Position numbers and translations under genes: made by a program. A DNA stretch of 64,000 nucleotides, from positions 246,140,001 to 246,204,000 of the forward strand of contig NC_067400.1 in assembly GCF_016432865.1 (NCBI RefSeq), written 5' to 3'. Below the pieces are notes generated by a model that had not been told where the DNA came from, made no database searches, and saw only the letters and a list, made by a program, of their open reading frames with translations. Shown in pieces: positions 40,601-59,624 of this stretch (positions within the stretch are counted from its first letter, which is position 1; each line of letters opens with the position of its first letter). Source of the stretch: Antechinus flavipes (taxonomy: Eukaryota).

Positions 40601-40798
40601 ATGAACTACTATGGTGGCTACTATGGAGGCCTGGGCTATGGCTATGGCTCTGGTTATGGGTGTGGATGTGGCAGCTTCCGTGGCTTAGGCTATGGCTATG
40701 GCAGCTATGGCTATGGAGGCCTGGGCTATGGTGGCTATGGCTTTGGCTGCTGCTGCCCATCTTGTGGTGGAAGGTATTCTTCCTATGGCTTGTTCTGA
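40601..40798 (+). CDS. KRTAP19-like: K7: high Gly/Tyr KRTAP, 65 aa ORF with damaged regulatory signals
   Basis: [28 protein letters not shown]...[16 protein letters not shown]; TATA is TACAAAA (40518), uORF 40576-40596, poly(A) signal is AACAAA (41112). Confidence 0.78.
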
Positions 40799-42460: not shown

Positions 42461-42718
42461 AAGCTCCTAATACTTGAGTTTCAGCTTCACACCATGAAAA
42501 TATTTTTCATCTTGATCTACTATTCTGCATCATTACAGAATATTTATTACCCAATTTTGCAATGAAATGTGTAGATTGCCTGAATTCTAGAGAATTCATA
42601 TTTGAATTCTTGTATCCAAAGATACTTTGAACTACTTGAAACTACTTGAAACAAGGATACTTACAACAAGGTGTTAACTCAGTGCCATTGATGAGATGAT
42701 AGTTCTCTAGTTTACATA

Positions 42719-43733
42719 CCGTGTTTCCCCGATAATAAGACACTGTCTTATTATTTTTTTGGACAGAAAACCACCACAGGGCTTATTTTCAGGGGAGGGC
42801 TTATTTTAATGAACAATGACAGCAATTTTAATAAACAGGTAAATGTGAACAAAAACAAGTACCTTTATTCAATAATGATCATGTCATCTTCTTCAACAAC
42901 ATCGTCATAAGTGTCCATACCCTGAATTCTGTCCTGGATGTCTTGTGCCTCTATTTCCTTCAGAAGAAGTGGACCCAATCTGTCATGTCCAGCAATATAG
43001 CTCTCTTTAAATGAACATGTCTTGTCCAGGTAACCTGCTCGTAATGCCTTGGCGACACAGCTATCAGTAATTTTATCCCATGACTTCTTCACCCAAGTCA
43101 TGACTTCTTGCAGACAGGGCTTCACAAAGTTTCCACACTGATTTCTTTCCATTCTATTTTCAGTGTAGTCATTGACTTCCATGTGCAAATGGTCCTTGAA
43201 TGGCTTGTTTATTGCAATATCAAGGGTCTGGAGATAGGCAGTCATTCCTGCAGGAATCATTACTTGATCTATTCTTCTCTCTGCAAGGAAGTTCTTTCTT
43301 TAGCATGGTGAGTGCTGGCTGAGTTCTTCTTTTATCCTCCATCATGCCCCTTTTATCCTCCATCCCTTTTATCCATCCCCTCACTCCTGCTTACATACCA
43401 GGTTTTTATGTTGTCCTGCCTCAGCTCTCCTCCGCGGCACTGCTCTCAATGGCGCCAGCAAGCAAATCACTGGGGAAGAACAGGATGACACACTCACTGC
43501 TGCAGCTCTGATTGGATGCAGATTGGAGCGCGGCGTGCATTTCATCCGGGGGGAGGAGGAGGACGGTGCATACAGAGGGTACCATAATGTAGCGTGTAGC
43601 ACAGGGGATCACCTTCACTACAGTAGCAATCTCAATAGGGCTTATTTCCGGGGGAGAGCTTATTTTAGAGGAATCTTACACAGTAAGGGGAAGGCTTATT
43701 TTTGGGATAGGTCTTATTATCGGGGAAACATGG
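42719..43733 (-). mobile_element. Internally deleted Tc1/mariner-superfamily DNA transposon (pogo/Tc2 group) nested in the LTR
   Basis: TIRs CCGTGTTTCCCCGATAATAAGAC and GTCTTATTATCGGGGAAACATGG, flanked by TA on the left and CA (mutated TA) on the right; carries a transposase remnant. Confidence 0.9.
42865..43325 (-). pseudogene. pogo/Tc2-type DDE_1 transposase C-terminal remnant
   Basis: Open 131 aa MIPAGMTAYLQTLDIAINKPFKDHL...EDDMIIIE resembles the pogo 'IP.G.T..LQPLD..INKPFK' motif; a frameshifted upstream extension reads SASTHHAK...KNFLAERRIDQV. Confidence 0.88.
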
Positions 43734-45412
43734 CATACTTAGTACTTAAGTATGGTGATGTAATGGTTCTCTAGTTCACATATATTCAGTATGCTGTAAT
43801 GATGTAATTTTAATATGGTATTTAAGGGCTGAGAAAACTGGGGGCAGAGTCAGTTGGTCAGTCAGTCAGAGTGAACAGACTGTGAAGGAGTCAGACTGGG
43901 ACAGACTATGAAGGAGACAGTAAAGACTTTAGACTCTATTCCTCACCATTCTTGTGGTGACTATCCTGCTGAGACCAAGGACATCCAGAAGACCTCCAGA
44001 AAGCTTGCCTAGGCATTACAGAAATTATATCTCTTCAGATTTCTACTGGAAAATATATATTTCCTTCTTGAATGTTTTTCTAAAGTTTGATTTCAATAGC
44101 ACTTACATTTTAGTTCTTGGTAATATCTAATCCTAACTTTACCAAAGGTAAGGAATATATATCCATGTAAGCTGTGCCCCCTCCCCAACATGTTTTCTGT
44201 GCATATGGACAGAATTGTTTTCTTAAAGGTTTCAAAAAATTCATATATTCAGGGCCTCATATTTATGGTTCATAATCTTCAGATTCAAAGTTTACTTAAT
44301 GACTGCCAGAATTAGATTAGATTTTCCCTTGTCTAGCTATCTTCCACCACTTTATTATCACCAAGAAATTTGGAGTTTTGGAGCACCGCACAAGAAATTT
44401 CGGCAAACCACATAGAATACAGATGATAATCATATATGAAATTCTAAATTTGTCATGGAAACTTTCTCTTTAAGTGGGTACCATTTCCTATAGCCAGCCA
44501 CATGCTTTGTTGATTCAAATCATAACATTGCCCTTGAGCTGAAACCCACCCTTTCATCAGGGCTAGGTACTCATTCTTGCAAGGGAGTCCCCAAAATCAC
44601 TCAGACACCTCAGCTCTTTAATCAATTCAAACTCCCAGGGAAAGAGAATATCTACTTTGTCAGTCCACAATTGGCATTGAGGCATTTGGATTCTTGAGTT
44701 CCATATGCCAAGGATGGCCCCATAATGATGTGTTCCAGAAAAGTTCACAGGGAAAAATGTCAGAACTTCACACTCTAGGTATTTAATAAATGATTATTAG
44801 TTGAACTTTTATTTCAAACAGTGAACCAAACAATACAAGTATCACAATGGATCTTATTCTGCCTGCTGCTTTTTAGCTTGAAATTAATTTCTATTATTCC
44901 AGATGATTCCTAGGCATTATACTCCATTCATAAAAAGCCAGTTCACTTCTATGAATTCAATTGCTTTTCTAGAGAAATATCCTTAACATCCTCATTTCAA
45001 TCTATTCCTTCCAAAACACATCTCCAAATGATTCTCCAGTCCTTTTCCAGAACATTATATAGAGGTTACTTTAGTGGAAACTAATCCTTCAGGAAAATGA
45101 TCATTTCTTTCTTGGCTCATATTAGGCAAAGAATATTTTATTCTCTTTAGCAAAGTAGAAATTCAATTTCTGATGGGAAACTGTCACATCTGAATCCAAA
45201 TTCTCCTACATGGGAAAGTCAAAATAAAATAGGGCCTATTCTATATATTAGCCACTAAAACTCCTTAGTAGAGCTAGCACTACTAACCCTGAATATCCTA
45301 CAAGCCCAAGAGCCCCAGTTCATTCAAGTGAATGTCCTAGAGTCTGAATTGGAATCTGTACTTCTCAAAATGCTCTCCAGCTTAGGCAAAGATCAGCTAT
45401 GCCCTGAGAAGT

Positions 45413-46342: not shown

Positions 46343-46414
46343 GTCCCCATACAGATGGTACTGTATACTCTTACAACTTCTTGACATTAATCCAAATTTG
46401 TGAATCCTGATAAA

Positions 46415-46627
46415 ACGAGATACTATGGCAGCAATTATAGGGGCCTGAACTATAGCTGAGGCTATGGATATGGCTCCTTCCATAGCCTAGTTTATGGCTG
46501 TGGTAGATATGGCTATGGAGGCTTAGGTTATGGTGGTTATGGCTATGGAATCTACAGCTATGGAGGCTATGGCCATGGATGCTGCTGCTCATCTTGCTGG
46601 GGAAGTTATTATTTTTCTGGCTTCTAA
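46415..46627 (+). pseudogene. K8: KRTAP pseudogene
   Basis: Start codon is ACG (46415) and there is an in-frame TGA at 46457; the remainder still reads [24 protein letters not shown]...[15 protein letters not shown]-stop. Confidence 0.9.
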
Positions 46628-59291: not shown

Positions 59292-59624
59292 AGGGAACAG
59301 TTAAGCAGGAAGAACAGTATGAAATACATCTGGGATCTCCAGTTAGCCAGAAGTGTCAAAAGTCAAAGTGAAGTCAGAAAGAAGGAAAATTTAGAACAGG
59401 CTGTTAGAGAGAATTTTTTTTTTTAATATTAGGATCCGGAACCAGGTATCCAGGGCTTTTGAAGGCAATGATAAGAGAGCAGACAGAGAATCTAAGTAGA
59501 TTCCATAGCTGAAATGCATTCATTGGAACCTACTCAGATTCTCTATCTGCTCTCTTTTCATTTTCTTTGAAAGACCTGAATACCAGGTATTCTTCATACT
59601 GTTCTTCCTGCTTAATTGTTCCCT
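59292..59624. mobile_element. Unclassified foldback/MITE-like element with about 32-bp terminal inverted repeats and an internal 33-bp hairpin
   Basis: AGGGAACAGTTAAGCAGGAAGAACAGTATGAA matches the reverse complement of the right end at 31/32; inner inverted repeat 59473-59505 and 59524-59556. Confidence 0.75.

Follow-up and report, generated by a model that had tools for sequence, protein, structure and literature searches.

Transposases of the Tc1/mariner/pogo group bind the terminal inverted repeats (TIRs) of their element, excise it and insert it at a TA dinucleotide, which is duplicated in the process. Late activity of DNA transposons is rare in mammals outside bats. Within pogo, the Passer family is characterised by a DD35D catalytic motif, TIRs shorter than 30 bp, a TA target and a single open reading frame (ORF) of 400–500 amino acids (aa) with an HTH_Tnp_Tc5 domain, with or without BrkDBD, and a DDE_1 domain (PMC7386202, PMC9976928). 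The accessible parts of these two surveys name bats, afrotherians, monotremes and a few other hosts, and no marsupial. The horizontal transfer of the hAT element OC1_Das into dasyurids is known (PMC3621081, PMC4408412), and hAT transfers (OC1 and hAT-1_MEu) are the only ones described for Australian marsupials in the literature found, as far as its accessible parts go. For the devil, what the accessible part of the report lists is confined to hAT transfers and the older Mariner/Tigger and Charlie families (PMC4408412).

We analysed a stretch of 64,000 nucleotides from Antechinus flavipes (contig NC_067400.1, positions 246,140,001 to 246,204,000; the window), in which an initial annotation had described a pogo-type transposon nested in a solo LTR. 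We consider it quite probable that this element is a non-autonomous deletion copy of a young Passer transposon lying in an older LTR, which was moved in trans in a burst about 6–11 My ago after a likely horizontal entry. A single nested copy is ordinary; the finding is the family itself, which is probably an undescribed invasion of marsupials by a member of the known Passer family.

The transposon in the window and its host LTR

The transposon occupies 42719–43733 (1015 bp) and is a non-autonomous internal-deletion copy. Its 23-bp TIRs lie on the minus strand at 42719..42741 (transposon 3' end) and 43711..43733 (5' end) and match at 22/23 positions, the mismatch being a CpG transition, so the length and the TIRs of the initial annotation were confirmed in the sequence. 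Its TA target held for the left copy only, as the right copy (43734..43735, plus strand) reads CA in the window. A 4-bp CATA target duplication was considered and rejected, because empty LTRs carry one TA and 23/30 sibling elements are flanked by TA. The hairpin noted at the left end is present at 42732..42754, with a 10-bp stem that overlaps the TIR, and so are the repeated subterminal motifs: GGCTTATTT occurs twice on the plus strand in 42780..42806 (starts 42780 and 42798) and on the 5' side at 43639 and 43693. These copies of GGCTTATTT are likely additional transposase-binding sites, and judged from the sequences, hairpin and motifs are features of the whole family and not of the window copy.

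The transposase gene is reduced to a C-terminal remnant, codons 280–432 (42865..43322, minus strand), that keeps only the third catalytic Asp (D315). The internal-deletion junction (43319..43322, minus strand) shows 4 bp of microhomology; about 970 bp were removed here, including the start codon, the HTH domain, D175 and D279. The 131 uninterrupted codons reported earlier were found as a Met-started minus-strand frame at 42865–43260 with a DDE_1 match (E 2.6e-6). Near 43294 the remnant has a private 4-bp deletion, and four extra letters were seen at 43294 in 8/8 sequencing runs examined. The remaining 5' non-coding region (43323..43710, minus strand) is likely the transposon promoter: it is CpG-rich and has two CCAAT boxes in reverse orientation at 43511 and 43522, as had been noted, with a CpG observed/expected ratio of 0.52 in the 5' part of the element, 0.33 in the whole element and 0.07 in the window.

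The surroundings consist of a tandem cluster (window 916–57042) of at least nine Gly/Tyr-rich frames, which we take to be of the KRTAP type from their sequence, in units that are 63–82% alike. The nearest upstream frame (65 aa) is at 40601..40798 on the plus strand, and the LTR lies about 1.8 kb downstream of it, within a non-coding part of this duplicated unit. The three-layer structure proposed earlier was right for the transposon in the LTR; the LTR itself is not inside a KRTAP gene. Given a CpG-rich region with CCAAT boxes and an open frame of 131 codons in the vicinity of a KRTAP gene, one could suspect that the window copy has been co-opted by the host, either to regulate the KRTAP cluster or as a coding remnant. 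However, all three features belong to the whole family, and the copy is 3.7% diverged like its siblings, has lost 17/33 CpGs and is left with no start codon, no HTH domain and only one of three catalytic residues, which makes co-option highly improbable; the 131-codon frame is what is left of the gene and does not point to a function. The KRTAP-type unit near 46400–46600 looks broken, and the LTR-bearing segment of the cluster seems to be without its coding part. At 59441–59588 there is an unrelated imperfect palindrome of 150 bp.

The solo LTR extends over 42570–44020 and is split by the transposon into a 5' part (42570..42718, plus strand), which ends in the target TA at 42717–42718, and a 3' part (43736..44020, plus strand). 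It is flanked by GAAATG (42564..42569) and GAAATT (44021..44026), both on the plus strand; the 6-bp length of the target site duplication (TSD) given in the initial annotation stands, and its two copies match at 5/6 positions. A left edge at 42643 was rejected: other copies match only from there and 42564–42660 is unique, which is explained by a private insert of about 45 bp at about 42595–42642, and the left edge of the initial annotation was retained. The LTR has 3250 candidates in the genome, the best copies being 78–86% identical, and where the 5' end could be located (24 copies) the 6-bp TSD was exact in nine and had one mismatch in five. We assigned the family to ERV LTRs because one copy elsewhere adjoins Gag_p24, zf-CCHC_5 and protease remnants, which provides the retroviral gene link in addition to the TG...CA ends and the 6-bp TSD; by these sequence features it is probably a class II ERV. 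Other loci of the family include L137 (G000:C2:624833000-624839000) and L138 (G000:C1:660556000-660564500), and in L137, where two LTRs lie 4.4 kb apart, no retroviral domain was detected in the two frames scanned. An internal LTR repeat of about 47 bp (42689–42718 and 43753–43782) was also seen, and the transposon landed in its first unit.

The transposon arrived after the LTR, as the initial annotation had proposed. In 23/29 other LTR copies the two halves are contiguous and share exactly the two bases of a single TA, an insert at that TA was found in 0/29, and LTR copies differ pairwise by 12.7% compared to 5.0% for element copies (30 sequences each). It is these empty sites together with the difference in divergence that identify the transposon as the later arrival.

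The family in the Antechinus genome and its age

Genome-wide, we found 2,818 candidates for the element, the best 40 at 91–94% identity, and 1,031 perfect TA plus TIR ends compared to 0 in the control. The 30 best short copies are 1000–1034 bp long and 23 of them have TA on both sides; their K2P divergence from the consensus is 3.2%, or 1.9% without CpG sites, and about 21% of their CpG positions have decayed. A second sample, anchored on loci with one perfect TIR (30 loci, 28 elements), gave 3.5% and 2.3%, respectively, and full-length copies gave 2.9% and 2.0%. Both samples of copies are biased towards well-preserved ones, selected as best matches or by a perfect TIR. The consensus and divergence check that had been proposed returned low values, in line with the young age claimed for the element. 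The right breakpoint of the window element is common to 13/28 of the TIR-anchored elements, and 3/28 are full-length. Other deletion subfamilies in L107–L136 are of about 385 bp (3/28) and about 1.36 kb (4/28), with several single types.

To locate the autonomous parent we used P0001, a 432-aa protein with a 95% match to the window remnant. The parent, with both TIRs and flanked by TA, was present in 27 of the 30 best transposase loci (1768–2359 bp). It is a transposon of about 1.8–2.0 kb with a single 432-aa ORF, HTH_Tnp_Tc5 and DDE_1 domains and the triad D175, D279 and D315, that is DD35D; BrkDBD was not detected in its transposase by domain search. Positions 1–415 of the window element correspond to 1–416 of the parent, and 412–1015 to 1386–1993.

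Together with the 23-bp TIRs and the TA target, these are the properties of Passer elements, and the pogo membership proposed earlier is borne out. The initial annotation could not name the family; we place it in Passer (DD35D pogo) and regard it as PasserB-like, a link that derives from the TIR and the ends, as the tree had no named Passer reference. As far as the accessible descriptions go, PasserB of Crocodylus porosus and Schmidtea mediterranea and the Antechinus family are alike in DD35D, HTH_Tnp_Tc5 plus DDE_1, 431–432 aa, about 1.6–2.0 kb and TA. The crocodile and planarian TIRs (23–24 bp) differ by one base from those of the Antechinus family, with the same hairpin and subterminal motifs. 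Unlike these elements, the Antechinus one is a distinct family in which a deletion derivative dominates. Its TIR core has no row in the accessible part of the published Passer table (PMC7386202, PMC9976928).

Thousands of copies would enter any de novo repeat library, and the family could be young and yet already catalogued for marsupials in Dfam or Repbase, so that only its description would be new. We regard this as rather unlikely, since in the parts of the sources available to us the family is absent from the devil's list of seven DNA transposons above 1,500 nt (PMC4408412) and the Passer tables contain no marsupial. Such a family is also unmentioned in the accessible parts of a bat survey (PMC10162687), a vertebrate screen (PMC7070016), a snake paper (PMC8872380) and a transposase-capture preprint (bioRxiv 10.1101/2020.05.07.082677), the supplements of which may list marsupial fusions. 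No description of the family was found in the literature covered by our search, outside of which were Dfam, Repbase and most subscription papers.

The catalytic DDD is kept in 25/27 full-length copies and is combined with an open frame in 5/27, and the pooled dN/dS of the full-length copies is 0.83, near neutral. Two copies, L061 (G000:C2:335466159-335467454) and L062 (G000:C1:727056534-727057826), have an open frame, DDD, perfect TIRs and a TA at either end; they are 1.4% from the consensus, and both lie near zinc-finger gene exons. Their dN/dS values of 0.38 and 0.27 come from 12–14 changes and from selection as best matches. Open frames are also found in L070, L076 and L083. The closest pair of short copies is 3.2% apart and the full-length minimum is 1.4% from the consensus. 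Near-identical pairs are absent among the copies, so nothing points to current activity, and the family seems to have died out completely or almost completely.

A marsupial rate of 3.21e-9 per site per year, derived from opossum–wallaby repeats, was used for OC1_Das in the accessible part of that study (PMC3621081). At this rate a divergence of 3.2–3.5% corresponds to 10–11 My and 1.9–2.3% to 6–7 My, which would put the burst about 6–11 My ago, with a borrowed rate and samples that favour well-kept copies. From the accessible parts of the reports, OC1_Das resembles the Antechinus family: it too is a DNA transposon that recently invaded an Australian marsupial, has thousands of copies and gave rise to non-autonomous derivatives; it is 5.4% from its consensus, dated to 17 My (PMC3621081). 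It differs in being a hAT element, in its higher divergence (5.4%, about 17 My, as compared to 3.2–3.5%) and in having known non-marsupial partners. At about 3% divergence, the pogo family would represent a separate and younger invasion, involving a different superfamily and shared between marsupial orders, and its thousands of presence/absence sites would be a dated marker set for the dasyurid radiation.

These data are consistent with a sequence of events in which a Passer-type transposon entered the marsupial lineage from outside and deletion derivatives were moved in trans by the transposase of full-length copies during the burst. The derivatives would then have outnumbered the parent before the family went extinct, and a separate entry may have taken place in the glider lineage.

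Relatives in the sugar glider and in other organisms

The 90% cluster of P0001 has one named member, the Petaurus breviceps papuanus protein P0036 (XP_068919392.1), in which a SCAN domain is joined in frame to a whole 432-aa transposase. At the protein level, P0036 differs from the Antechinus consensus transposase in 14/432 residues (96.8% identity), and it groups with the Antechinus transposase at 100/100 in a tree of 19 rows picked from protein matches. The host exons compared with the glider are 60–73% (calpain-13), 78% (SCAN exon 2) and 97.9% (SCAN exon 1) identical, and as SCAN exon 1 is this similar, high protein identity alone proves nothing. The Antechinus orthologue of the SCAN gene (G000:C4:187.79-187.81 Mb, L104–L106) has kept its zinc-finger exon, and no transposon was found there in 30 kb. 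None was found either within 30 kb upstream of the Antechinus calpain locus, which is a weak test. L061 and L062 were considered as orthologues of the glider fusion and rejected, as no SCAN exon lies within 20 kb upstream of them.

Additionally, 20 sequencing runs from 11 studies contain the element or part of it, of which eight were examined; runs with a small share (X17–X21) were left out of the comparison. Four related organisms, with flank differences of about 0.1%, 1.3%, 2.2% and 3.4–4.6%, all hold the element and the LTR, and their flanks and LTR-only bins are deeply covered. In contrast, the same bins and flanks had zero cover at 80% likeness in X10, X12, X13 and X16; three of these four runs comprise only 7–97 million letters, and contigs can demonstrate that a sequence is present but not that it is missing. 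The element in these runs differs from the Antechinus majority at 7/393 (X10), 4/224 (X12), 2/400 (X13) and 6/206 (X16) positions, that is 98–99.5% identity, and one change is common with the glider and P0001. The contigs of X12 add up to 1.6 billion letters, half of the amount for close relatives, and contain many TIR ends. The organism of this run may be a non-marsupial, the alternative being a distant marsupial at low coverage.

Horizontal acquisition, raised earlier as something that may have happened, is thus strongly suggested by the glider protein, the LTR-free runs and the empty orthologous site, and from these sequence comparisons we consider it likely. The element is far more similar between species than host DNA, with 98–99.5% in the LTR-free runs and 96.8% in the glider protein compared to 60–78% in variable host exons. 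Near-identical named copies were found by protein searches in marsupials only, and conservation of 98% also occurs in a host exon, both of which would fit vertical persistence from the ancestor of Australian marsupials with low activity and late bursts in several lineages. The cross-order split of marsupials is at about 60 My. With a dN/dS of 0.83, a protein difference of only about 3% across orders would be hard to keep, and further arguments against such persistence are the empty SCAN-gene site in Antechinus and an LTR-free organism whose element differs at two of 400 bp. According to the accessible part of a vertebrate screen, DNA transposons evolve neutrally within their hosts (PMC7070016), which also counts against it. 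Vertical persistence is in our view improbable. An old, highly diverged family with insertions orthologous across marsupial orders was not observed; the one testable cross-order site is empty.

With horizontal entry as the preferred reading, the family could tentatively be regarded as the youngest DNA transposon invasion seen so far in marsupials, with independent entry less than about 10 My ago into both dasyurid-like marsupials and gliders, as well as into at least one non-marsupial (genome of about 1.6 Gb), intact transposase genes and a SCAN capture in the glider; we hold this extended version somewhat less probable than its opposite. The family itself would allow a route to an Australasian vector to be traced and may have given rise to a very young transposase-capture gene.

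No non-marsupial transposase above 87% was found in the protein searches, the closest named ones being from Rhinolophus (82%), Zootoca (79%) and Pipistrellus (75%). The DD35D transposases of Rhinolophus, Pipistrellus, Zootoca, Crotalus, frog, leech and spider are 70–82% identical and have the same domains; they form separate clades on the tree and are too distant for a direct donor. A second family, about 82–86% like the element, was seen in X10, X12 and one low-depth contig of X2 (record 10). X16 is a whole-organism metatranscriptome with the element and without the host LTR; the source could be a different host, a parasite or a blood meal. Presence or absence of the window insertion in relatives was sought in contigs and rejected as a result, since flank contigs end inside the LTR and joints possibly come from other LTR copies. 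Depth in X9 was roughly tenfold lower and the profiles of X12 and X13 were end-heavy, which are hints only, as summed run depth is not a copy number.

The glider SCAN–transposase is possibly a very young host–transposase fusion, as read from a gene model in another species, and the fused copy could be under selection. It is similar in this respect to POGK, POGZ and the fusion genes described in the accessible part of the transposase-capture preprint (bioRxiv 10.1101/2020.05.07.082677), whereas no fusion is seen in the window copy. The same or a related transposase is joined to host domains in P0113 (a Petaurus calpain-13 model), P0002, P0006, P0003 and P0005; in these vertebrate proteins, many of which may be annotation artefacts, the host partners are calpain, R3H, DnaJ, GTF2I and KRAB-zinc finger.
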